Of a stretch of 64,000 nucleotides of DNA, positions 6,985 to 47,245 are shown one piece after another. The position numbers and the translations under genes were made by a program. The notes beneath the pieces are model-generated. The model saw nothing but the letters and a program-made list of their open reading frames with translations, had not been told where the DNA came from and made no database searches. This DNA is from Candidatus Dadabacteria bacterium (GTDB lineage: Bacteria; Desulfobacterota_D; UBA1144; Nemesobacterales; Nemesobacteraceae), in NCBI GenBank assembly GCA_951812945.1, contig CATOTB010000006.1, positions 6,696-70,695 on the forward strand, read 5' to 3'. How positions within the stretch are numbered: the stretch's first letter is position 1; each line of letters starts with the position of its first letter.

Positions 6985-7761
6985 ATGCTTCTCGCAATTG
7001 ACGTCGGCAACACCAGCATAATGGTCGGAATATTTTCAGGAGAGGACCTCGTACACAGTTTCAGGGTCGATACTGACAGAACCAAAAGCCCTGACGATTA
7101 CGGGATTATCCTCTTCGGGAAAATGGACGAGAAAGACATATCTCCCTCTTCGTTCAGTGGAGCCATACTCTCCTGCGTGGTTACCGAAATGCAGGAGGGG
7201 GTGGCTAAACTGGTAGAGAAATATTTCGGCCATCAACCTATAATCGTGGGTCCGGAGACAAGAACGGGAATGCCGACCCGGATTTATAATCCCGAAGAAC
7301 TCGGAGCTGACAGGATAGCAAACGCCGTTTCGGCTTACCACCGCTTCGGTGGAAGTGTTATAGTGGTCGATCTCGGGACGGCAACTACTTTTGACTGTGT
7401 TTCCGAAAAAGGAGAATATCTGGGCGGAGCTATAGTTCCGGGGATCGAGCTTTCCACAGTCGCGCTTTACCATGGAACCTCCAAGCTTCCGAAAGTCGAT
7501 CCCGAAAAACCCGAGCAGGCAATCGGCAAAGACACCGTCGAGTGCATACAGTCAGGGCTGTTTTACGGTTACGCCTCGATGATTGACGGGCTTTGCGCAA
7601 AGCTCAAGGAGGAGATGAGATCTTCACCCGAGATCGTAATCACAGGAGGTTTCGCCGACTCGATATCTGAGGAGTGCACCTGCGCGACACGGGTTGACAA
7701 GGATCTTGCTCTCCACGGCCTGAGACTTCTCTATGAACTCAACTCTCAGATACTCTGTTAG
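6985..7761 (+). CDS. coaX: type III pantothenate kinase
   Basis: LAIDVGNT, LGADRIAN, VVDLGTATTFD, GGAIVPG, ITGG. Confidence 0.96.
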   Translation: MLLAIDVGNTSIMVGIFSGEDLVHSFRVDTDRTKSPDDYGIILFGKMDEKDISPSSFSGAILSCVVTEMQEGVAKLVEKYFGHQPIIVGPETRTGMPTRIYNPEELGADRIANAVSAYHRFGGSVIVVDLGTATTFDCVSEKGEYLGGAIVPGIELSTVALYHGTSKLPKVDPEKPEQAIGKDTVECIQSGLFYGYASMIDGLCAKLKEEMRSSPEIVITGGFADSISEECTCATRVDKDLALHGLRLLYELNSQILC

Positions 7762-8129
7762 GAAAATAGTCTCGGAAACCACCTGTTTCGTACTTTCTCT
7801 TGAATTCACGGACGGCCGTCGCCACTGGGTTTTTCCAAACGCCGGATGGATGGATAAAAGGCAGAAGGCTATCGGGATCGAGTTTGAAGAAATCGACCTG
7901 TGGGCTTTTCTCCGCGGACAGTCCCACTCGGCTAAAGCCGATTTTTCTGTTTCCGGGAGGTACGTTTCGGGGCGTGAAGGCTCCTCCAAGCTCTCTTTTT
8001 GTCTCGATGATTCGTTATTTCTCCAGGGGAATTACGTTTTACTTTCTCCAAGCTGGGGGCGTCACTCAAAAAGAAAGATGTGGCTTCTAATCCCCGCTTC
8101 GGGGAGGGAGCGCGGTCGGCAGTAACGGA

Positions 8130-10862
8130 TTATTTGAGGCCGAGGTCAGTGGATATTCGCGTATGGTTTCCTGTTTCCGGGAGAATTTCAACCCGCTTTT
8201 CTGATTCCTGGGGTTTCGGATCATAAAAAATTTCCTTCTCGTTTGCCAAAAACAGATCTTTCCACAACGCGTATCCCTTTCTGTTCATGTGAAGACCGTC
8301 TTCGGTGAACAGTTCTTCTCTTATATCTCCGTTCTCATTTAGCATGTAGTCGTAGATGTTTAGGTAAAAGGCGTTTGGCTCTCTTGACAGGAACTGTCTT
8401 ACTAGATCGTTTGACGCTTTGATTCTGTCAATAAAATGGACCCTTACGGGACTCGGTTTTATGGAAACGAACGTCATTTTTGTGTGAGGATAGGATTCTC
8501 TGAAGCGGTGGTAAAAATCCAGAAAGAAATTCAGTACCTGCTTTGGAATGCAGCCGTCCCCTATATCGTTATCGCCCGCGTAGAAAACCAGGGATTTAAC
8601 GTCACCCGGTTTTATAAGCCGCTCGAAATAGTGGAGGCAGTAGGCGATTCTGGCGCCTCCGAAACCAAGATTCACAATGTTGTATTCTGGGAAATCCCTT
8701 GCCATGCCTCTCCAGAGGCGGAAACTTGAGCTGCCGTAAAATACCGTCGCGTCATTCTTTTTCCCGACATGGCGTCTTTCAATTATCCTCACGTCCTGTT
8801 CGAACAGGTTTTTATCGATTGCCGGGAAGTCTTTTTCAACCTGCTCAAAGGTTTTTAGGTTGATCTTTGAGGATTCCACCCGCCTTGCAAGTCCCGCCGC
8901 CTCTTCCACATATCTTCTGTACTCGTTTCCGTATTCCCGGATGAACTCAAAGAGCTTGTCTTTGTTTTCCTCGGGATTCTTTACGTAGTCGGATATCCTG
9001 AATGGCTTTTTTATCACCAGAGAAAACACGTTCTGGTTTATTCTTTTATCAAAATTCGCCACCGCAACGGGAACGATATATGGCTCGGGCGAGATGGACG
9101 CGGCCAGAAGAAAAGCGCCGAGTTTGAACGGACCGGGAGACTCCTCTGTCGTCATGCTGGTTCCCTCAGGACTTATTACTATGTTAAATCCTTTTCTTAG
9201 GTGCTCTTTGGCCGTTTCATAGAACCTTTTCCGCCACGCTTTTCTCCGCTCGGGGGTTTCCTGCGAAAGATCGGATTCGTCGGTGTAAACGTTTATATGA
9301 CCGAGTCTTTCGTAGTAGTACTCATGTCCGTATTCCTCCGCTCTTGGAACGCGTATGACGCGGATCCCGGCTTCGCCGTACTTGGCGTAGAGAACCATTG
9401 AGCTTATGAAGTGGGAATCAAGCGTAATCTGAAAATGGTTGGGGAGGGTGTTGTAGGGATGATTAAGCAGATGATTGTATATGAAGATGTGCCCGGGTTC
9501 GTCGGGCAAATTCTCCCAGCCTTCGATTACGTAAGGGGTGCTATTGAAAACTCCCGCGAACTGCTTGGCCGCCATGGTTCTTATTTCGCTTGGAGAAAGC
9601 GACTTGGGTGCGGCGGTCACGGACTGATAGACGTTTTTTAGTCCCTCGAAAAAGTTGTATTCCTTGTAGATCTTTCCGAGAATATCGAGACTGAGACGGG
9701 ACAGTTCCCTCTCAAGGCTTTCGCCTTCTTTTTCCAGTCTGAACAGAAGCCGGAAAGCGTCATCAAGGGTAAGCGGGCTGTTTAGCAGATGGGGAAGTTT
9801 ATGAATGGGGGAGGTTACGCTTAACTGCATAGAGTTCTGCTCGATAAGGTTGCTTATGGCCAGTATTTCGCGTTCGTATCTCTGTGATATGAGTCCCGCG
9901 CGGGCGTTTCGAAGCCGGATTGACACCAGCCACAGTAGCCTTCTGGCAAGAGCCAGTGCCGAGGAAGGATCCTGATAGAGAATCTTATGAAGGTTGCGGG
10001 CGCTTATGTGATAGATGACCGAATTTCTGCTCGCAACGCCGGTAACGTCGTTTGATCCGGCTGGAGCGGCGCCCATCCAGCCGACCATATATCCCGGGAG
10101 GTTGATCAGGTGAAGCGCGACGGAATCCTCGATTCCGCCCTGCGAACCGTCGGGGGAGAAGCATAGCACCGCCTTTCCGTAAGCCAGTATGTCTATTCCT
10201 CTCGAGGTATCCCCTTGGCTGAATATGGGTTCGTTGTTTAGATAGTATTTTTTCTGGGTCGCTTTTGCCAACTGGCGCAGTGTCTTGTCGGGAAAAACCT
10301 CGAAGAAGGGGGATTGCCTCAGGAGTGCAAGAGGGTTGGGTACGGATATGTATTTTCCTTCCTGGGAAAAACCGCCCGTTTTTCCCGCCTCGATGTCCCA
10401 GTTGACGTTGTTGTATTCCGCAAGCTCGGCTCTAACATGCTTTAGAAGGTTTATGCTTTTGCCGAGAACGAAAAGCAGGAATTCGCGTCCCAGAAGGGGT
10501 TCCTGGTCAAAGAATCTTTCAAGATTCTGGTGACTCCACTTTAGCAGGACGCAGGGCCTCTCGCATGTGATCGTTGTGTAGTAGCGTTTGGGAGAGCGGA
10601 AGCCTGACCAGCCTACGGGAGTGAATTTTTCGTCGCTCTTGCCCACCGAGAATTCATTGGTTCTGTCTTCGACGCTGATTGAAAAATTCACCAGACCTTC
10701 TATAAGGAAGTAGAAAGAATGGCTCGGTTCGAACTGTTTGGTGAGGACGTAGCGTTCGGGAACTTCTATCAGTTCGCCGATTTTAAGCAGGAAATCGGTT
10801 TTGTCTTTCTCGAAATTCGAAACGAATGGAAGTTCGTTGAATATCTCTGTTTTTTCCCACAT
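8130..10862 (-). CDS. multidomain protein: 2 cyclic-nucleotide-binding-like domains + PlsC-like acyltransferase + SGNH/GDSL hydrolase
   Basis: cNMP-like segments (ELPFVSNF...FYFLIEGLV...VGWSG; QSPFFEVF...IFSQGD...VGWMG); acyltransferase blocks IFIYNH, ISPEGT, IVPVAV; SGNH blocks FYGSSS, NLGFGG, YAGDND, DGLH. Confidence 0.8.
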   Translation of the reverse strand: MWEKTEIFNELPFVSNFEKDKTDFLLKIGELIEVPERYVLTKQFEPSHSFYFLIEGLVNFSISVEDRTNEFSVGKSDEKFTPVGWSGFRSPKRYYTTITCERPCVLLKWSHQNLERFFDQEPLLGREFLLFVLGKSINLLKHVRAELAEYNNVNWDIEAGKTGGFSQEGKYISVPNPLALLRQSPFFEVFPDKTLRQLAKATQKKYYLNNEPIFSQGDTSRGIDILAYGKAVLCFSPDGSQGGIEDSVALHLINLPGYMVGWMGAAPAGSNDVTGVASRNSVIYHISARNLHKILYQDPSSALALARRLLWLVSIRLRNARAGLISQRYEREILAISNLIEQNSMQLSVTSPIHKLPHLLNSPLTLDDAFRLLFRLEKEGESLERELSRLSLDILGKIYKEYNFFEGLKNVYQSVTAAPKSLSPSEIRTMAAKQFAGVFNSTPYVIEGWENLPDEPGHIFIYNHLLNHPYNTLPNHFQITLDSHFISSMVLYAKYGEAGIRVIRVPRAEEYGHEYYYERLGHINVYTDESDLSQETPERRKAWRKRFYETAKEHLRKGFNIVISPEGTSMTTEESPGPFKLGAFLLAASISPEPYIVPVAVANFDKRINQNVFSLVIKKPFRISDYVKNPEENKDKLFEFIREYGNEYRRYVEEAAGLARRVESSKINLKTFEQVEKDFPAIDKNLFEQDVRIIERRHVGKKNDATVFYGSSSFRLWRGMARDFPEYNIVNLGFGGARIAYCLHYFERLIKPGDVKSLVFYAGDNDIGDGCIPKQVLNFFLDFYHRFRESYPHTKMTFVSIKPSPVRVHFIDRIKASNDLVRQFLSREPNAFYLNIYDYMLNENGDIREELFTEDGLHMNRKGYALWKDLFLANEKEIFYDPKPQESEKRVEILPETGNHTRISTDLGLK

Positions 10863-11016
10863 GAAAATAAATCATACCTTTTTTGTCGCCATAATATACT
10901 TGTCATCCGAAGCCGTGTAACTATTCAGATAGGACGCAGGATTTTTCGCAATTCCGTTGAAAATAATTTATGCTGTTTGGAAAATTTCCAGACCATTTTT
11001 TTCAAGGAGCTTCAAG

Positions 11017-11380: not shown

Positions 11381-12652
11381 TCAATCGGCAGTCTCAATCC
11401 GAAAATCTGCGGAAAGCAGTCGCCAGTGTTCTTTGAGTTGTTCTTTGTGAGCGTGATTCGCGGGCAGGTCACCAAGAGATTTTGGCCAGAGAGAACGCGC
11501 TTTATCCAGTGTATCGTCAAGCTGCGGTTTAATGGCTTTCCAAGGAATATCGGCTTTATTGGCCCAGGCTCTGAAATGATCAAAAGTGATTTTGTACCAA
11601 TTCTTGTTTCCACCCAAATTTAACGCATACTCCCTTTCATCACCCATATAAACACGAGTGATCACGATATCGTATGCGAGGGAAAGTTCGGGAGTAACCG
11701 TGTCGGGATAGACCAGAGACCAGTTTTTTAAATGCGCATCACCATTGGCTAGAAGAATGTTAGTCAGTAATCGTCGGGCGAATTGCTGGACGTTTTTGAG
11801 GCCGTCGCCAGTGTACTGATAGATGATCTTACCTATCTGTCCGTAATTCGGACCGTCGTACTTTTGCCATGAGTACTTAGCCAGAACCTGGGCGAAGTCT
11901 TCGGTGTGAATGCGTTGTCCATCCTTGCGGTCAAATCTTCGTATGGCAAATGCGAATTCTTCGTCAGGGAGACTTATGGCGGGGAGTTTATCGAGAGCGT
12001 CCACTTTAACCAAACGGGTATCCGGTATATCAATTCCCGCTTTTTGCGCAAGCCGCATGGCGGTGAATTCGTTTAGGGGAACGAGTTTGTGTCTGGTGGA
12101 CGGGGTTTTGATAATCCAGTCCCCAAGATTTCCAGATTCAGCAATCCGGTAGCGTCCATCCCGTTCCCGCATCGAAAATTTCATTTGTACGCCGGCAAGA
12201 GAAAAATGTTTTGCATCACTCTGCATATTGGCTTTAATGACTTTTGCCTTGGGAGTTAATACGTAGTCGGGAACATCATCAGGTTCTGTGGCGGTGACGA
12301 TTAGAGCTCCAGGAAGATCTTGCCCAAGGCTGGCGAGCAGTGCGAATTCATTATCAATATGAATTTTCAGATATTGAGCCAGCAATTCTCTCAATACTCC
12401 TTCGGGCAGCAGGTTGGAGAGCACAGGGTGCAGCCGTTGTCTCCTTGACCAGGGTTTTGCGAGCACCTTTTTTACGTTAGGAAAATCTGGATGCGTTGTC
12501 AGAGTGAAGGTCGGTCGCGAACTGTTACCTGTAAACTCGGGCGCAAACGTAAGGGTGCTTCGACCGTCCTTATGGCCCGTCAGATATCCGACCTTTGTTC
12601 TGTGCAAGGTGAGTTCTAAAACATGGATTTGTTCTGTGCCGCTCACGATCAT
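11381..12652 (-). CDS. hipA: HipA-family Ser/Thr kinase toxin
   Basis: NLLPEG, SLAGVQMK, IIKTP, NEF, RRFDR, HTEDFAQ, NGDAHLKNWS, AYDI. ATG 12652 overlaps the antitoxin stop (ATGA) and has a GGAGG RBS. Confidence 0.95.
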   Translation of the reverse strand: MIVSGTEQIHVLELTLHRTKVGYLTGHKDGRSTLTFAPEFTGNSSRPTFTLTTHPDFPNVKKVLAKPWSRRQRLHPVLSNLLPEGVLRELLAQYLKIHIDNEFALLASLGQDLPGALIVTATEPDDVPDYVLTPKAKVIKANMQSDAKHFSLAGVQMKFSMRERDGRYRIAESGNLGDWIIKTPSTRHKLVPLNEFTAMRLAQKAGIDIPDTRLVKVDALDKLPAISLPDEEFAFAIRRFDRKDGQRIHTEDFAQVLAKYSWQKYDGPNYGQIGKIIYQYTGDGLKNVQQFARRLLTNILLANGDAHLKNWSLVYPDTVTPELSLAYDIVITRVYMGDEREYALNLGGNKNWYKITFDHFRAWANKADIPWKAIKPQLDDTLDKARSLWPKSLGDLPANHAHKEQLKEHWRLLSADFRIETAD

Positions 12653-12966
12653 TCCTCCAGCAGCCCTTCCCAAGGATCATCGGGAGGAGGGTCCGCAGCA
12701 AGGCCAATATTAATTCTAGGGCCGGAACCTATATCGGTTCTTTCTTCCAGTATGTCGCGAACCAAGCGCAGTTTTTCCTGCGGGATAAGCAGTACCTCCA
12801 TCCTAAGCCCTTTGGCAACCAGTTCAAGAGTGTCCAAGCGTGGGTTGCCCTTGGATTCCAGCCGCTGATACTGCTGTCTTGGCATACCGACGCGCAGCAT
12901 CATATCTTTTTGTTTCAGGCCGAGTTCCTTTCGACGGATTTTAATCTGATCGCGTATTTTGCTCAT
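12649..12966 (-). CDS. hipB: HipB-like XRE helix-turn-helix antitoxin
   Basis: IKIRRKELGLKQKD...QYQRLESKGNPRLDTL; directly upstream of hipA. Confidence 0.88.
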   Translation of the reverse strand: MSKIRDQIKIRRKELGLKQKDMMLRVGMPRQQYQRLESKGNPRLDTLELVAKGLRMEVLLIPQEKLRLVRDILEERTDIGSGPRINIGLAADPPPDDPWEGLLEE

Positions 12967-24233: not shown

Positions 24234-24291
24234 GCCGTCGGCCGGGAGCTTGCGGGATTTTCTTTCAGAATCGGAATACTTTGTCTCTTTC

Positions 24292-24789
24292 ATGAGAAAT
24301 TATCTGAGCGTATTCGTTATATCTTTTTTGGTCGTGTCGCTTGATCAGTTGACCAAGTGGCTTGTTAAGGCGCATGTCCCGTTTCTATCGAGAATAAACG
24401 TGTTTTCCTGGTTTGATATAACGCATTTGCGAAATCCGGGAATTGCATTTGGCATGTTAAGCGACATGCCCGAGAGTGTAAGGTTTTACTTTTACGTCAT
24501 TGTCTTTATTTTGGTGCTGGTCGTGATCTTTTTCTTTCTTCGCAAGCTGGGCGAGGAGCAGAGAGTTTTTCGGTATGCGCTGGCCTTGGTGCTTGGGGGA
24601 GCGATCGGAAACTCCATAGACAGGTTTGCCTACGGATACGTGACTGATTTTATCGCGGTCTACTGGCCGGGAAACCCCGGTCTTCTCTGGCCTCCTTTTA
24701 ACGTGGCCGATTCAGCGATTACGGTCGGAGCGATTTCGGTTCTGATTTTCGGAGTTTTGGGACGGAGCAAGGAAGGAGCGGATGTTTAG
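24292..24789 (+). CDS. lspA: lipoprotein signal peptidase II
   Basis: LDQLTK, NPGIAFG, GGAIGNSIDR, VTDFI, FNVADSAI. Start 24250 or 24292. Confidence 0.95.
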   Translation: MRNYLSVFVISFLVVSLDQLTKWLVKAHVPFLSRINVFSWFDITHLRNPGIAFGMLSDMPESVRFYFYVIVFILVLVVIFFFLRKLGEEQRVFRYALALVLGGAIGNSIDRFAYGYVTDFIAVYWPGNPGLLWPPFNVADSAITVGAISVLIFGVLGRSKEGADV

Positions 24790-27869: not shown

Positions 27870-29186
27870 ATTTGAGCGTATACTATCTTACCTACCAATC
27901 ATATAAAATATGACAAATGACCAAAGAAGTTCGCTCGGTAGAGTTCGTTGTCCTGCCCACAAGCAGGGCGAAAGCGAGGAAGATGTTTCGGGTAGCTGGA
28001 GCCTGCAGATTTGTATGGAACCATTTCAGGAACAAGAACCTTGAGGACTACCAGAAATTCAAAAAAGGTAATGGGGACAGGCCGTCTGTCAGCCACTTCA
28101 GTCTCGGGGTGGAGTTCACCAAGTTTAGGCATGAGACGGATTGGCTTCGGGAACTTCCCGCAAATCCGGTTAAATACACCCTTAAGTATTTAGCGGATGC
28201 CTTGAAACAGGCAATACAAGGCAAAAAGGGATTTCCGAAGCCGAGAAGCAGAAAAAAGACAGCACCTAGCTTTACGCTTCCCGACACGGCCAATTTTAGG
28301 ATAAAGAAACTAGACAGAAAATACGGTTTCCTCCGCATTCCTTTGATTGGTTGGGTGAAACTCACACGCAAGGGAGGCAATCTTTGGGAAAACGGTGTAC
28401 CTAAGCAGGTGGTGCTTCGCCATGATGGACGGAGGTGGAGGGCTTTTGTCTTCTATGAAGTTGAAGTGGAAGAAAGAATGGACGACGGCGAGGTTCTTGG
28501 CGTTGATATGAACGTCCGCCAGGTTGCCACTTCGGACGGACATTTTTACTTTCTGCCGGATTTAAATAAGAAAGAAGCGAGAAGGATGTGGTATCAGAGA
28601 AGGATGGCGCGACAGGTCAAAGGTTCAAACAGGCGGAAAGACACAAAAAGGAAGCTTGCGAAGGTAAGCAGGAAAATCGCCAACATACGTAAAAACTGGA
28701 TTCATCAAACTACCCATGAGATTGCGGAGAAATGCGGAACCGTCGCGATAGAAGATCTAAATGTTAAGGGCATGACCGCTTCCGCAAAAGGAACTGTTGA
28801 GAATCCCGGGAAGAACGTAAAGCAGAAGGCGGGGCTTAACAGGGTAATACTTGATACCGCTTTCGCAGAGATAAGAAAAAAACTGGAATACAAGTGTGGG
28901 AGACTGATTGAAATTAATCCCGCATACACAAGTCAGACTTGCTCGGAATGCGGACATACGGATAAGGAGAATCGCAAAACTCAATCGCGGTTCCGATGCG
29001 TTTGCTGTAGTTTTACGTCCAATGCGGACACGAACGCCGCAGTAAACATACGGCGTCTGGGAATGGCGCAACTGCACGGGGAGGGTACTGATATTAGCAC
29101 GGTCCCTGCGAACCGTGAAATTGATACGAGGCCGGTCAACTAATGGCTAGCATTGTATATAATTCCCAGTTATAGTCATGCTTCAA
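27870..29186 (+). mobile_element. non-autonomous IS200/IS605-like element (tnpB only); boundaries approximate
   Basis: No tnpA: only 68 bp separate tnpB from the divergent thioesterase. Hairpin 29149-29182 followed by TCAA (29183-29186). Confidence 0.55.
27917..29143 (+). CDS. tnpB: TnpB RNA-guided endonuclease (IS200/IS605 OrfB)
   Basis: GACRFVWN, GFPKPR, RuvC-I GVDMN, RuvC-II AIEDL, zinc finger TSQTCSECG...FRCVCC, RuvC-III NADTNAAVNI. Confidence 0.95.
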   Translation: MTKEVRSVEFVVLPTSRAKARKMFRVAGACRFVWNHFRNKNLEDYQKFKKGNGDRPSVSHFSLGVEFTKFRHETDWLRELPANPVKYTLKYLADALKQAIQGKKGFPKPRSRKKTAPSFTLPDTANFRIKKLDRKYGFLRIPLIGWVKLTRKGGNLWENGVPKQVVLRHDGRRWRAFVFYEVEVEERMDDGEVLGVDMNVRQVATSDGHFYFLPDLNKKEARRMWYQRRMARQVKGSNRRKDTKRKLAKVSRKIANIRKNWIHQTTHEIAEKCGTVAIEDLNVKGMTASAKGTVENPGKNVKQKAGLNRVILDTAFAEIRKKLEYKCGRLIEINPAYTSQTCSECGHTDKENRKTQSRFRCVCCSFTSNADTNAAVNIRRLGMAQLHGEGTDISTVPANREIDTRPVN

Positions 29187-43830: not shown

Positions 43831-44904
43831 GTGTCTGATTCCAGTTCAATTAAAAGCAGGATTTCCAAGAATGTAAGGTCCATATCTCCTTACTCGGTGC
43901 CGAGGGTCGAGTGCTCGGTGAAACTCGACGGAAACGAAAGCCCTTACGATCTTGAGAGCCGGGAGAAGCTTGCGCTTTCCAAGCGGCTGGCGGAACTTCC
44001 CGTAAACCGTTATCCGGACCCTGAGGCTCTGGAGCTAAGAACCTCCCTTTCACGCACTGTAGGTTTCCCCAGAGACGGTATATTGCTCGGCAACGGCTCA
44101 GACGAGATAATCCAGATGATCGTCGAAGTGCTTGGGGGAAAATCCGGTCGCGTGCTCGTACCGTCCCCGACTTTTTCGATGTACAGGATCACGTCGCTTA
44201 TCCTGGGCAAACAGGTAACGGAAATCACGCTCGATGAGAACTTTGATATAGATCTAGAACCGACCTTGGAGATGATCAGCGCCGAAGATCCTGATATTGT
44301 CTTTCTCGCAACTCCGAACAATCCTACGGGGAACTCTTTCTCGGAGGAGAAGATTCTAGAGATCTTGGAGGCAAGCTCGGGTGCGGTGGTTCTTGACGAG
44401 GCCTACTGCGATTTTTCCAAAAAGAGCTATGTTCCCCATATAGAGAAATATGAAAACCTGCTGGTCCTGAGAACGATGTCCAAGATAGGATTTGCAGGTG
44501 CCAGGCTCGGAATGCTCTTTGCGCAACCGCAGATAGCAAGCGAAGTAAACAAGGCGCGGTTGCCCTACAACATAAATTCTCTTAGCCAGATGGTAATGTC
44601 CTTTGCGCTTGAGAACTCCGATTTTATTGAACGGAAAATAAGCCTTATATTGAGCGAGAGAGAAAGAGTTCACGCGTCGCTTGAGCGAATTGAGGGGATT
44701 CATGTTTATCCAACGGACGCGAATTTTTTCCTGATACGGGTTCCGGACGCGGATTTCCTTTTCACGGAGCTTGTCAAAAACGATATTCTGGTCCGTCGCT
44801 TTGAGGGAGAGGGGCGCCTTGCCGACTGCCTCAGGATCACGGTCGGAACCAGCGACGAAAACGACCAGCTCATAGAAGCCCTAGTCAGCATATTTCCTTC
44901 CTAG
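43831..44904 (+). CDS. hisC: histidinol-phosphate aminotransferase
   Basis: LDGNESP, RYPDP, GNGSDE, PNNPTG, DEAY, RTMSK, RITVG. Confidence 0.96.
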   Translation: MSDSSSIKSRISKNVRSISPYSVPRVECSVKLDGNESPYDLESREKLALSKRLAELPVNRYPDPEALELRTSLSRTVGFPRDGILLGNGSDEIIQMIVEVLGGKSGRVLVPSPTFSMYRITSLILGKQVTEITLDENFDIDLEPTLEMISAEDPDIVFLATPNNPTGNSFSEEKILEILEASSGAVVLDEAYCDFSKKSYVPHIEKYENLLVLRTMSKIGFAGARLGMLFAQPQIASEVNKARLPYNINSLSQMVMSFALENSDFIERKISLILSERERVHASLERIEGIHVYPTDANFFLIRVPDADFLFTELVKNDILVRRFEGEGRLADCLRITVGTSDENDQLIEALVSIFPS

Positions 44905-46464
44905 GTAGTTTTTCGCGACGAAAAGAATCGTTACCGCAAGGGCTATCCACGCGAATATATCTCCCACTTTTGTGTAGAGAGTTTCAATCGAATCGATCAA
45001 AACCACATTTCCCTTCAAACTCTCCTCAGTGAATATGCCCGTGCGGGCTTCGATTTTCCCTGTCGGAGATACGATCGCGCTTATACCGCTGTTTGTTGAT
45101 CTTACCAGGTAGCGACGCGTCTCGACCGCCCTCGGAATTGAAAGGAGCAGATGCTGATAGGGAGCTATACTCCTTCCGAACCATGCGTCATTGGTGAGGT
45201 TCACGAGCAGGTTAGCTCCTGTTTTCACGTAGTTCCTCGAAAGTCCCGCCATTATATCCTCATAACATATAAGGGGTCCTATCTTTATGTTCTTTCCGGG
45301 AATCTCAAGTACTCTGGATCCCTCTCCCGGGGTAAGGTCTCCGATCATGGGAAAGACTCTTTTCAAAAATCTGAGCTCCTCGTTTATCCAGGGGAAATAT
45401 TCACCCAGCAGAAAAAGCCGGGTTTTGCTGTATTGCTCAAGGATATTGCTTTGGGGATCAACTAAAAAAGCCGTGTTGTATTTTCTGTGATCTTCCTCGT
45501 CCCAGCCGTCTTCGAGCAGGGCGGGGTCCGGGATAAAGGAGAGTCCCCCGATAAGAAAGTGCGCTGCGTGTCCCGCCGGCACCACGTCTATTTGGTCTTC
45601 GATTCTGTACACGGAATCTTCTTTGGGGAACCAGTGCTGAACCGACGTTTCCGGCCAGATCACAAGATCCGCCTCGGTGAACTCCCGTGACATCTCCCTG
45701 TGTTTTTCCGTTATAATCGGTTCGTTGTCGAGATTCTTTTCTGCATAGTCGAAATTTGCCTGAACCATTGCGACTTCCACCCTAGGTTCTGTTTCAAGAA
45801 ATTTCTCTATTTCATTTATTCTGAAAGTTCCGTAACCGAACACGACCGCAATCGCGGCGACCGAGATTACCGGGGGAGCGAGTACGGGTCTGCTTCTTTG
45901 CCGTATATCGTCTACAAGGTAGAAAACCGATACGTTTGCAAAAAACATCAAAAACCCGAGAAAGTTAACCCCGAGCGTGTCAACCACCTGTATTACCGTC
46001 GGATAGTAGCCCTGGGAGACTCCTATTCCGTAGGGAAAAAGAACCGGGAAGAAAAATTCTGCGACTACCCAGGCAAAAGAAATCACAAGTGCGTTTGAGA
46101 CGCTTTTTCTGCGGCAGAGTCCGAGCCTTGAGATATACCAGGTGAAAATTCCGAACTGAAGTGATGAGTAAACGCAGAACACAAACACGGCCGCCATGCT
46201 TGGGACCAAGGGGATTTCCCCGAACCTAGTCAGGGTTCCGACGAGCCAGTAAAGCGAGACAAGGTTCATGGATGTCCCGGATATCATCCCCAGTCGAAGA
46301 GACTGCCGGGCGGTTTTTCCCCGAAGGGCCGCAAGCAGCGGGACAAAGCATATCCAGCCCAGTAAGCCGAGAGCGCTTGAGAAGAGGGATATGGAAAAAA
46401 GCACCCCGGATCCGGCGGCCAGGATCTGGCTTCCGGTCGGCTTGTTTATCCGGATTTTTTTCAT
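44881..46464 (-). CDS. lnt: apolipoprotein N-acyltransferase
   Basis: TM helices; nitrilase triad motifs WPET, YSK, ICYED; TNDAWFG; RAVE. Confidence 0.95.
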   Translation of the reverse strand: MKKIRINKPTGSQILAAGSGVLFSISLFSSALGLLGWICFVPLLAALRGKTARQSLRLGMISGTSMNLVSLYWLVGTLTRFGEIPLVPSMAAVFVFCVYSSLQFGIFTWYISRLGLCRRKSVSNALVISFAWVVAEFFFPVLFPYGIGVSQGYYPTVIQVVDTLGVNFLGFLMFFANVSVFYLVDDIRQRSRPVLAPPVISVAAIAVVFGYGTFRINEIEKFLETEPRVEVAMVQANFDYAEKNLDNEPIITEKHREMSREFTEADLVIWPETSVQHWFPKEDSVYRIEDQIDVVPAGHAAHFLIGGLSFIPDPALLEDGWDEEDHRKYNTAFLVDPQSNILEQYSKTRLFLLGEYFPWINEELRFLKRVFPMIGDLTPGEGSRVLEIPGKNIKIGPLICYEDIMAGLSRNYVKTGANLLVNLTNDAWFGRSIAPYQHLLLSIPRAVETRRYLVRSTNSGISAIVSPTGKIEARTGIFTEESLKGNVVLIDSIETLYTKVGDIFAWIALAVTILFVAKNYLGRKYAD

Positions 46465-46486
46465 GTGTAGCGGCGAAATTGCGGGT

Positions 46487-47245
46487 TCAGGACGCTTTGC
46501 TGCGCTTGCGAACGGATATGTATTTAAGCGCCCCTACAAGAATCAGAAAAAGCGCCATTATCTGCGCTACCGACAAGCCGGATATAGGGCTCTCGGTAGT
46601 ATTTCTTATGAACTCTACAAAGAACCTTTCAAGACCCGCGAGCACAAGATATATGCAGGCAAGCCATCCCACGGGCCTTTTGCTTTTCCTTAATTTCCAG
46701 AGCACTACGAACACCAAAGACATTATGATAATTTCATAGAGTTGCGTCGGATGCACGGCTTCAAGCGTCGGGGGAGAGCCCTTTGGAAACGGCATTGCCC
46801 AGGGAAGGGAGGAAGCGATTCCGTAATCGTCTCCCACCAGAAAGCAGCCGAGTCTTCCCGTCGCGTAGGCTATCGCGAGTGCCGGGGCGGTGGCGTCAAG
46901 AACTTTCCAGAAGCTTTCCCCGTGTTTTTTTATTACCACGAAAAAGGCAAAGAGGGCCAGAAAGAATCCCCCGTAGAAAGTAAGACCGCCTCTTAGAAGC
47001 AGATAATGCGCGGGGTAGGAGAGAAGATCGCTTAGGGGAATGTTCTCAATCAGAAAAAGGAGCTTGGCGCCCAGTATGCCTCCCACCAGAGAGGCGAGAA
47101 AAACGTGTTCGTGAAGTCGCCTTGATATTCCCTTTCTCTCAAACTCCATCCCGGAAACCCAGAAAGCGACGAGAAAAGCGGCGGCGACCATCGCCCCGAA
47201 AGAGGTAATCTGAAAATCGCCTATTCTGAGGAGTTCGGGATACAT
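46487..47245 (-). CDS. lgt: prolipoprotein diacylglyceryl transferase
   Basis: GGLTFYGG, GRLGCFLVGDDYG, HPTQLYE, RFFVEFIR. Confidence 0.96.
   Translation of the reverse strand: MYPELLRIGDFQITSFGAMVAAAFLVAFWVSGMEFERKGISRRLHEHVFLASLVGGILGAKLLFLIENIPLSDLLSYPAHYLLLRGGLTFYGGFFLALFAFFVVIKKHGESFWKVLDATAPALAIAYATGRLGCFLVGDDYGIASSLPWAMPFPKGSPPTLEAVHPTQLYEIIIMSLVFVVLWKLRKSKRPVGWLACIYLVLAGLERFFVEFIRNTTESPISGLSVAQIMALFLILVGALKYISVRKRSKAS

Follow-up and report, generated by a model that had tools for sequence, protein, structure and literature searches.

In mycobacteria, Rv0998/MSMEG_5458 carries a domain of the type that binds cyclic nucleoside monophosphates (cNMPs), fused to an acyl-group transferase that is under its control. 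Neuropathy target esterase (PNPLA6) combines cNMP-binding-type domains, which are reported not to bind cyclic AMP (cAMP), with a lipid esterase, and Escherichia coli Aas unites two activities around a PlsC-type domain by which lysophospholipids are re-acylated. LPCAT1 and LPCAT2 belong to the PlsC/AGPAT superfamily and platelet-activating factor (PAF) acetylhydrolase Ib (PAF-AH Ib) is an SGNH enzyme; PAF-AH Ib and the sialate O-acetylesterases stand alone or bind LIS1. Bacterial glycerolipid acyltransferases are not known to be under the direct control of a ligand sensor in the same chain, and bacterial deacylation and reacylation are known only as the work of scattered, separate enzymes. Here we analyzed a gene of Candidatus Dadabacteria that encodes a sensor of the cyclic nucleotide-binding (CNB) type, an acyltransferase-fold domain and an SGNH esterase in one chain. 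It lies in a 64,000-nucleotide stretch (contig CATOTB010000006.1, positions 6,696 to 70,695), hereafter called the window. Full-text literature searches returned no paper on a sensor-acyltransferase-SGNH architecture, and no characterized protein of this kind turned up in the literature, in line with the original prediction, which had been made from the DNA letters. A further search, on bacterial CNB proteins with patatin-type lysophospholipases, yielded only a paper on the lipocone superfamily. We propose, at about even chances, that the gene specifies a ligand-gated deacylation/reacylation module.

The gene (8130..10862, minus strand) is a single ATG-started open reading frame (ORF) of 910 codons plus a stop, giving a protein of 910 residues. 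A check of sequence and residues located every motif that the original prediction had quoted, and Pfam and the alignments gave the same order along the chain, in which a pair of cNMP-binding-type domains is followed by a helical connector, then by a PF01553 acyltransferase, and finally by an SGNH hydrolase that is complete. Pfam matched PF00027 (cNMP_binding) in two stretches (E = 2e-12), the better being residues 205 to 296, PF13472 (Lipase_GDSL_2) at residues 710 to 866 (E = 2.9e-12), and PF00657 (E = 4.7e-06). PF01553 (Acyltransferase) matched residues 512 to 601 with 30.4 bits against a gathering cut-off of 23 (E = 4e-07), although this match covers only model positions 56 to 131 of 132 (the C-terminal 76 positions) and thus leaves the HX4D part of the model unmatched. 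No NCBIfam family scored above its cut-off for the 910-residue protein, its SGNH part or the CE7 partner described below; on the protein, TIGR00530 reached 20.7 bits, far under its cut-off of 102.95. The N terminus is charged and no stretch of 19 residues has a Kyte-Doolittle mean above 1.47, so that neither a signal peptide, absent also from the original prediction, nor a membrane span is apparent. From an alignment of 144 rows, AlphaFold2 gave a full-length model with a mean predicted local distance difference test score (pLDDT) of 84.2 and a predicted template modeling score (pTM) of 0.67, with low confidence at residues 152 to 171, 665 to 680, and 884 to 910. We read the gene product, as part of the same evenly balanced proposal, as an enzyme of three modules that is either soluble or peripheral.

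The fusion is real and kept in relatives. A word-indexed search of a protein collection scored 7981 candidates, 365 of which were related at E ≤ 0.001, far beyond chance. Among the 120 relatives listed, 25 were full-length three-part proteins of 879 to 911 residues and 54 to 92% identity, some of them named Candidatus Dadabacteria, and four more, named Maribacter, were three-part proteins of 862 residues and 35 to 36% identity. Most others had about 610 to 715 residues and comprised sensor and acyltransferase without the SGNH part, and a few were shorter pieces. Their database names are generic ("cyclic nucleotide-binding domain-containing protein," "GDSL-type esterase/lipase family protein," "lysophospholipase L1-like esterase"). 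A genome scan with one genome per species confirmed 257 relatives, the best 80 of which are used for the locus counts given below. The fusion recurred in 23 of these 80 loci, in many independent assemblies that include whole chromosomes, which rules out an assembly artifact. The closest loci (90 to 92% identity) lie on chromosomes and contigs of Thermodesulfobacteriota or Candidatus Dadabacteria, the latter being a class within the former phylum in the NCBI taxonomy, and the complete chromosomes among the closest relatives measure about 1.5 to 2.4 Mb. The ESM Atlas added, as leads only, further three-part clusters in Bacteroidota.

Hidden Markov models of the sensor, the acyltransferase and the SGNH domain were run on all ORFs of the 80 loci, and an SGNH gene was sought within 8 kb. 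This showed that the acyltransferase is almost constantly accompanied by an esterase. In 23 loci, all in Dadabacteria-like genomes, the three parts are fused (one of these genes, at locus L013, is interrupted). In 29 loci, the SGNH part is instead a separate gene of 194 to 221 codons directly downstream on the same strand, with an overlap of up to about 70 nucleotides or a gap of up to about 30. The boundary between the two genes coincides with the flexible linker that joins acyltransferase and SGNH domains in the fused protein (residues 665 to 694; 8781..8870, minus strand; pLDDT below 50 at 665 to 680). The hosts of the split form are Cytophagales (Marinoscillum, Jiulongibacter, Cyclobacteriaceae) and one Dadabacteria-like metagenome-assembled genome (MAG; locus L023). 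The remaining 28 loci, from Vicinamibacterales and other Acidobacteriota, two Polyangiaceae, and one Roseivirgaceae, had no SGNH gene within 8 kb. In 27 of them, a CE7 gene adjoins the sensor-acyltransferase gene on the opposite strand, in three phyla and two arrangements (divergent and upstream in most loci, convergent and downstream in L077), while none of the 52 SGNH loci carries such a gene. The CE7 partner belongs to the AXE1/CE7 family (PF05448, E = 2.9e-34); in the PDB, it matched cephalosporin C deacetylase (1l7a, E = 1.8e-27) over nearly its full length and acetyl xylan esterases as well.

The two enzymatic parts also share a history. We computed a quick maximum-likelihood tree of the sensor-acyltransferase part (82 rows, with the incomplete L013, L060, and L078 left out) and, also by quick search, a tree of the SGNH part (58 rows). 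In the former, the Maribacter fusions fell within a starred (99) clade of split Cytophagales forms and the Dadabacteria fusions formed a separate starred (100) clade, in which the split L023 was nested. Since the two groups of fusions stand apart, fusion, or fission, happened at least twice. The SGNH tree repeated the same starred (99) bipartition, indicating that the sensor-acyltransferase and SGNH parts evolved together. That acyltransferase and esterase serve one process is thus strongly supported by the fused, adjacent, and CE7-replaced arrangements together with the congruent trees.

The sensor appears less tightly bound to this pair. We examined with Pfam 27 of 150 listed cluster representatives of the acyltransferase family. 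Seven were acyltransferase-SGNH fusions of 417 to 486 residues lacking any CNB domain, four had one CNB domain and an acyltransferase, and eight were three-part proteins of 809 to 883 residues, one of which (P0184) gave no PF01553 match. P0151 had all three domains and is probably a fragment of an 855-residue form, and in the last seven PF01553 alone was detected. The sensor-less fusions have fixed lengths (451, 452, 459, or 461 residues) and occur on up to 36 contigs, some as long as 221 kb, and RefSeq has one such fusion from Euzebya tangerina. They begin at about position 68 to 74 of the acyltransferase-region profile, which assigns residues 331 to 400 (9663..9872, minus strand) to a connector on the sensor side. 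This connector, confined to sensor-bearing forms, consists of helices at residues 332 to 342, 352 to 359, 363 to 379, and 382 to 394. Because fused, split, esterase-swapped, and sensor-less forms all exist, the core unit, as judged from these sequences, is acyltransferase plus esterase, with the sensor an add-on on the acyltransferase side. The original prediction had placed a sensor and two enzymes in one chain, and this stands for the protein described here; as an obligatory part of the unit, the sensor did not survive the comparison with the sensor-less fusions.

Four of the loci deserve separate mention. In L013 (4939-10394), the orthologue is broken after about residue 114 by an insert of about 2.7 kb with ORFs of 231 and 606 codons, the longer of which gave a weak, sub-cut-off match to a MULE transposase (E = 9.9e-05); the gene has probably been inactivated by a mobile insertion. 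In L078 (8001-10573), from a Cytophagales MAG, sensor, acyltransferase, and SGNH lie in three frames as three ORFs, possibly because of frameshift errors, decay of the gene, or another split. L014, labeled "uncultured Spirochaetia," nests with Dadabacteria and L070, labeled "Rickettsiales," is sister to Marinoscillum pacificum, so that both bins are probably mislabeled or contaminated.

The acyltransferase core comprises residues 401 to 664 (8871..9662, minus strand) and has the GPAT/PlsC fold, as indicated by PF01553, the model and Foldseek. Modeled apart from the sensor, residues 331 to 690 reached a pLDDT of 89.0 and a pTM of 0.86 from a 34-row alignment. With this model, Foldseek returned 11 matches at E ≤ 0.001, and all ten listed were GPAT/AGPAT-fold acyltransferases. 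The top one was PlsC (5kym, E = 3.9e-07, TM score 0.58 on the target), and the plastid GPATs 8ia1, 1k30, and 1iuq (about 365 to 380 columns), LpxM, human GPAT1, and PatA were also found. The fold became visible to Foldseek only after this separate modeling, and it removes the possibility that the middle domain might not have the acyltransferase fold that had been predicted. Sequence alone ties the domain to PlsC only marginally (E = 0.2 for the acyltransferase profile against 5kym), although the profile alignment sets "ifiyNH" on "FIVVANH," with H464 on its histidine, and "PEGT" on "PEGT." Searched against 1.84 billion cluster representatives, the acyltransferase profile matched 453 clusters at E ≤ 0.001, of which 223 reached ≤ 1e-10 and 144 reached ≤ 1e-30, a distribution that marks the family as a small, sharply bounded branch of its superfamily. 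The ESM Atlas gave nothing more specific than "acyltransferase family protein" for residues 400 to 665.

Twelve residues (N463, H464, N467, N475, D482, R504, E510, H513, P565, E566, G567, and P598) were invariant in all 120 aligned sequences, and T568 was present in 105. Some of them belong to the SPEGT stretch (residues 564 to 568), the EGT-type element of motif III, and one, P598, to the hydrophobic-proline element of motif IV formed by IVPVAV (596 to 601), where it is part of the IVPxAV pattern. Motif I is a variant: within NHLLNHPYNTLPNHFQITLDSHF (residues 463 to 485; 9408..9476, minus strand), which contains NHLLNH and HFQITLD at 463 to 482, the canonical HX4D is missing, as the original prediction had suspected. 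Position 469 is proline in this protein and P, E, V, or R in 63, 33, 7, and 6 sequences, respectively. The invariant D482 lies 18 residues past H464, at the start of the following helix, and we suspect from this pattern that it substitutes for the canonical aspartate.

The SGNH esterase spans residues 695 to 880 (8223..8780, minus strand; PF13472), with S712, G735/G736, N765, D855, and H858 as proposed catalytic residues. Its four blocks, GSSS (710 to 713), GFGG (733 to 736), GDND (763 to 766), and DGLH (855 to 858), were invariant at G710-S711-S712, G735-G736, G763-D764-N765, D855, and H858 in all 25 fused and split sequences. In a larger alignment, these residues were kept in 58 to 60 of 58 to 60 sequences (S712 60/60, N765 58/60, D855 and H858 each 58/58), with the exception of D764 (55/60). 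The hydrolase is therefore complete, as originally described. Against the PDB, the SGNH profile matched the sialate O-acetylesterases 6njc and 7pzg (E = 2.3e-16), the latter described as a sialic acid acetylesterase of Phocaeicola vulgatus (PMC9063846). It also matched the putative PAF acetylhydrolase 2hsj (1.1e-15) and PAF-AH Ib subunits (about 5e-12 to 7e-08; 1bwp, 4.9e-12), while TesA/thioesterase I was marginal (E = 0.65 to 1). The nearest solved relatives are thus acetyl-esterases, and the SGNH part would by this likeness hydrolyze O-acetyl-type esters rather than long-chain substrates of lipases or TesA. A complex prediction of the acyltransferase region with the SGNH region (score 0.01, mark 0.32) spoke neither for nor against docking.

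The missing HX4D could mean that one module has been misread, either because the acyltransferase domain is a noncatalytic binder of lipid or acyl coenzyme A (acyl-CoA) that presents the substrate or because the SGNH domain transfers acyl groups or, as a thioesterase, holds the acyl donor in check. Some SGNH-fold domains do act as acyltransferases, such as those of the OatA/PatB type and Aeromonas GCAT. We nevertheless regard such a misreading as improbable, since the conservation of H464, D482, R504, E566, G567, and P598 in each of 120 sequences is hard to explain without catalysis, the replacement of SGNH by a CE7 hydrolase favors plain ester hydrolysis, and TesA-like thioesterases are marginal matches.

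The nature of the two esterases bears on what the pair acts on. As the SGNH part is nearest to acetyl-esterases and the CE7 partner to a deacetylase, the acyl group removed may be short. The original prediction had pictured opposed acylation and deacylation; that the two activities work together is borne out by the gene arrangements and the congruent trees, while a simple opposition on a long-chain lipid need not hold. One might go further and suppose that the target is no membrane lipid at all and that a PlsC-fold O-acyltransferase, under regulation, attaches acetyl or another short acyl group to a sugar derivative or a soluble metabolite, to be removed again by the esterase. The compounds with which the two partner families are associated are acetylated sugars, cephalosporin C, and PAF and not bulk phospholipids, the protein has no membrane span, and the family is small (453 clusters at E ≤ 0.001 among 1.84 billion representatives) and clearly separate from ordinary PlsC. 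However, all listed structural neighbors at E ≤ 0.001 are glycerolipid or lipid A acyltransferases, and the soluble plastid GPAT, which aligns over about 365 to 380 columns, also lacks a membrane span, so that we consider a soluble target rather unlikely, if the most serious of the alternatives.

The sensor consists of two CNB domains. CNB-A (residues 1 to 150; 10413..10862, minus strand) is a cNMP-binding-type beta-barrel with a C-helix and a pLDDT of mostly 87 to 96. It is followed by a poorly conserved loop (152 to 171; 10350..10409, minus strand; pLDDT below 50) and by CNB-B (172 to 330; 9873..10349, minus strand), which ends in a long helix (299 to 329) and has a degenerate binding loop. 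The tandem resembles that of PKA-R, as seen from PF00027 and from Foldseek, which with the full-length model yielded tandem CNB proteins exclusively, among them PKA-R and PKG at E of about 1e-13 over 300 to 350 columns. In a PDB sequence search with the whole-protein profile, the best 60 matches likewise comprised CNB proteins only. The CNB-A profile matched DNR, 3mdp, 2pqq, and regulators of the CRP family over its full length, while its alignments with PKA and PKG stopped at about profile position 58 to 74, ahead of the binding loop.

The canonical CNB cassette has the form Gly-Glu … Arg-Ser/Thr-Ala, in which the glutamate binds the ribose. Neither CNB-A nor CNB-B contains this combination of Gly-Glu and Arg. 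In the near-invariant CNB-A loop, GWSGFRSPKRYYTT (residues 84 to 97; 10572..10613, minus strand), the glycine and arginine of the cassette are kept, the glutamate is replaced by tryptophan and the loop is one residue shorter. Conservation was high irrespective of the type of esterase partner (G84 and R93 116/116, F88 113/116, W85 112/116, P91 111/116, Y94 110/116). CNB-B has a single near-invariant position, G257 (118/119), and shows G261-W262 (W262 in 71/118) with no conserved arginine. Both loops are therefore atypical in the way first noticed, G84-W85 with R93 and G261-W262 without an arginine. From this conservation, CNB-A is the likely ligand site, its ligand is probably specific, with an anionic group, and other than cAMP or cyclic GMP (cGMP), and CNB-B would have a structural role.

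The loop also bears on a more conventional scheme, in which cAMP or cGMP controls a lysophosphatidic acid acyltransferase and a lysophospholipase in a Lands-type cycle. The original prediction had suggested a cycle of this type, though with a ligand possibly other than cAMP. Such a scheme agrees with the PF00027 score above cut-off, the match of the tandem domains to PKA-R and PKG, the invariance of R93 in the first loop, and the name "lysophospholipase L1-like esterase" that source databases give to relatives. The glutamate position, however, is tryptophan in 112 of 116 sequences in a loop one residue shorter than the canonical pattern, the alignments with PKA and PKG stop ahead of that loop, CNB-B has neither the Glu nor the Arg, TesA-type lysophospholipases are marginal matches, and the genes of the 64-kb window include no cyclase. 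We therefore think cyclic nucleotide control of such a cycle unlikely.

The genomic setting is that of a housekeeping locus. In 21 of the 23 fused loci, coaX, a 130-codon ORF, and a Dabb-domain gene flank the gene. This setting matters for the idea that the protein is an antiphage effector of the Pycsar type, whose sensor detects a cyclic pyrimidine nucleotide and whose enzyme damages the membrane. Weak PADLOC matches at residues 23 to 124 to TIR-type effectors with cNMP-binding domains (E = 7.3e-05 and 1.7e-03) point that way, but they are confined to the sensor domain. A Pycsar effector would be expected beside a cyclase in a variable defense context, and we found no cyclase by the gene or in the window, a housekeeping synteny in 21/23 loci, and an esterase partnership that has no counterpart in Pycsar. 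We hold this explanation to be very improbable.

The 130-codon ORF (7733-8125, plus strand) converges on the gene, with 4 nucleotides between its end and the stop codon of the gene, and shares 29 nucleotides with the end of coaX. It has no Pfam, NCBIfam, or PADLOC match and, present in 21/23 fused loci, is absent from other clades. Between the Dabb gene and tsaD lies a toxin-antitoxin pair of the hipBA type (11381-12966, minus strand), made up of a HipA-like kinase gene (PF07804, PF13657; 430 codons) and, just upstream, a 105-codon HTH_3 gene; it is a variable insertion in the conserved synteny, with HipA in 5/23 and the HTH gene in 6/23 fused loci. Farther away, a TnpB-type ORF of 408 codons (27917-29143, plus strand) with OrfB_IS605 and a Cas12f1-like TNB domain is an apparent remnant of a mobile element, lying amid housekeeping genes. 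The window also holds adjacent lnt and lgt genes (44881-47245, minus strand), lspA (24250-24789, plus strand), and TolB- and TonB-type genes, which suggests a cell with two membranes and a full lipoprotein pathway. Of the minor features of the gene itself, the C-terminal tail (residues 881 to 910; 8133..8222, minus strand) is variable and unconserved, with a pLDDT below 50 at 884 to 910. A weak promoter-like site with 9/12 consensus matches lies upstream of the start codon (10893..10921, minus strand); as the region has seven such sites where 3.4 ± 1.8 would be expected, it is a mere lead, and the scan for promoters and terminators was uninformative.

We return to the proposal of a ligand-gated deacylation/reacylation module. 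What we observed is how the protein is built, which folds it has, that its catalytic residues are conserved, and that an esterase accompanies the acyltransferase. From this we infer, as follows, that the acyltransferase is gated and in which way, and what kind of substrate, acyl chain, and ligand is involved. Acyltransferase and esterase would have one substrate in common, which would bear a hydroxyl group and most likely resemble a lysolipid. The esterase, with its intact Ser-Asp-His triad and held by the flexible linker, would strip an ester-linked acyl group, probably a short one of the acetyl type. The acyltransferase would add an acyl group from an acyl-thioester to the same molecule or its product, so that the pair would exchange acyl groups or set the acylation state. 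Ligand binding to CNB-A, relayed through helix 299-329 and the connector, would switch the acyltransferase on or off, while the esterase would run unregulated.

Several points weigh against this proposal. Since HX4D is missing, the acyltransferase could work slowly, in an unusual way, or not at all, and the acetyl-type preference of the esterase is drawn from its nearest solved relatives. Locus L071 has neither an SGNH nor a CE7 gene within 8 kb, the sole such case among the 28, and the CE7 gene lies on the strand opposite to its partner. Most CE7 cases may moreover trace to one clade of the sensor-acyltransferase tree (one change, support 73) rather than being 27 independent events. No neighbor besides the esterase was common to several clades across the 80 loci, where synteny was kept within clades only, so that the context is silent on the pathway. 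Lastly, both trees are quick ones without a mixture model and with several long branches, which makes finer statements unsafe. The original interpretation as a whole is supported in part, its architecture, acyltransferase fold, fusion, and atypical loops having stood.

A bolder version of the gated module, which is a long shot, is that bacteria of at least five phyla run an acyl switch resembling the animal PAF cycle. A PlsC-fold enzyme would add a short, acetyl-type acyl group to a lysolipid-like signal or envelope precursor and an SGNH or CE7 acetyl-esterase would remove it. The Trp/Arg loop of CNB-A would read a nucleotide-like metabolite other than cAMP or cGMP, for instance, the 3′-phospho-ADP portion of CoA or acetyl-CoA, in which case the switch would be coupled to acyl-donor supply. 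If the gated acyl switch were true, bacteria would have their first described ligand-gated lipid acyltransferase and CNB domains a new class of ligand; the identity of the ligand would in any case widen the range of what CNB domains sense. With sensor, transferase, and esterase in one chain, the protein is a compact, testable case for which the split, sensor-less, and esterase-swapped forms are natural controls, and cultured hosts for genetics exist in Marinoscillum, Jiulongibacter, Maribacter, and Euzebya. Dadabacteria are described as cosmopolitan in the sea and as having streamlined genomes (PMC8115339). That the gene is kept in marine Dadabacteria with genomes of about 1.5 to 2.4 Mb suggests that its function is not dispensable.

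Compared with known systems, the middle domain shares with PlsC of Thermotoga maritima (5kym) and the plastid GPATs (1k30, 1iuq, 8ia1) the fold, the motif I histidine, and the EGT-type and proline motifs, and with the plastid enzyme in particular the helices ahead of the alpha/beta core and the lack of a membrane span. It differs from them in having no HX4D, the spacing to D482 being 18 residues, in its marginal sequence similarity to PlsC, and in being fused to a sensor and an esterase. The esterase falls in the same SGNH subgroup as PAF-AH Ib and the sialate O-acetylesterases, with four intact blocks, about 185 residues, and no signal peptide, but here it is tethered to, or encoded beside, an acyltransferase. 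LPCAT1 and LPCAT2 are described as lyso-PAF acetyltransferases (PMC4076079). The mammalian PAF pair, in which an acyltransferase adds and an esterase, PAF acetylhydrolase, removes a short acyl group on a lysolipid, would be the nearest functional analogue rather than a relative by membership. It consists of separate animal proteins under other regulation, and the bacterial enzyme need not handle acetyl groups or ether lipids as that pair does.

Where a sensor is concerned, Rv0998/MSMEG_5458 differs in its GNAT fold, which acts on protein lysines, its canonical cAMP site, its single sensor, and the lack of an esterase, and the PNPLA6 family in its patatin-fold esterase, its membrane anchor, and the lack of an acyltransferase. 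In Aas, the partner of the PlsC-type domain is an adenylate-forming ligase and not an esterase, and there is no sensor. Each domain of the Dadabacteria protein thus comes from a known superfamily; what sets it apart is the combination of a PlsC-fold acyltransferase coupled to a ligand sensor with an esterase partner that is near constant, one locus (L071) being without it.

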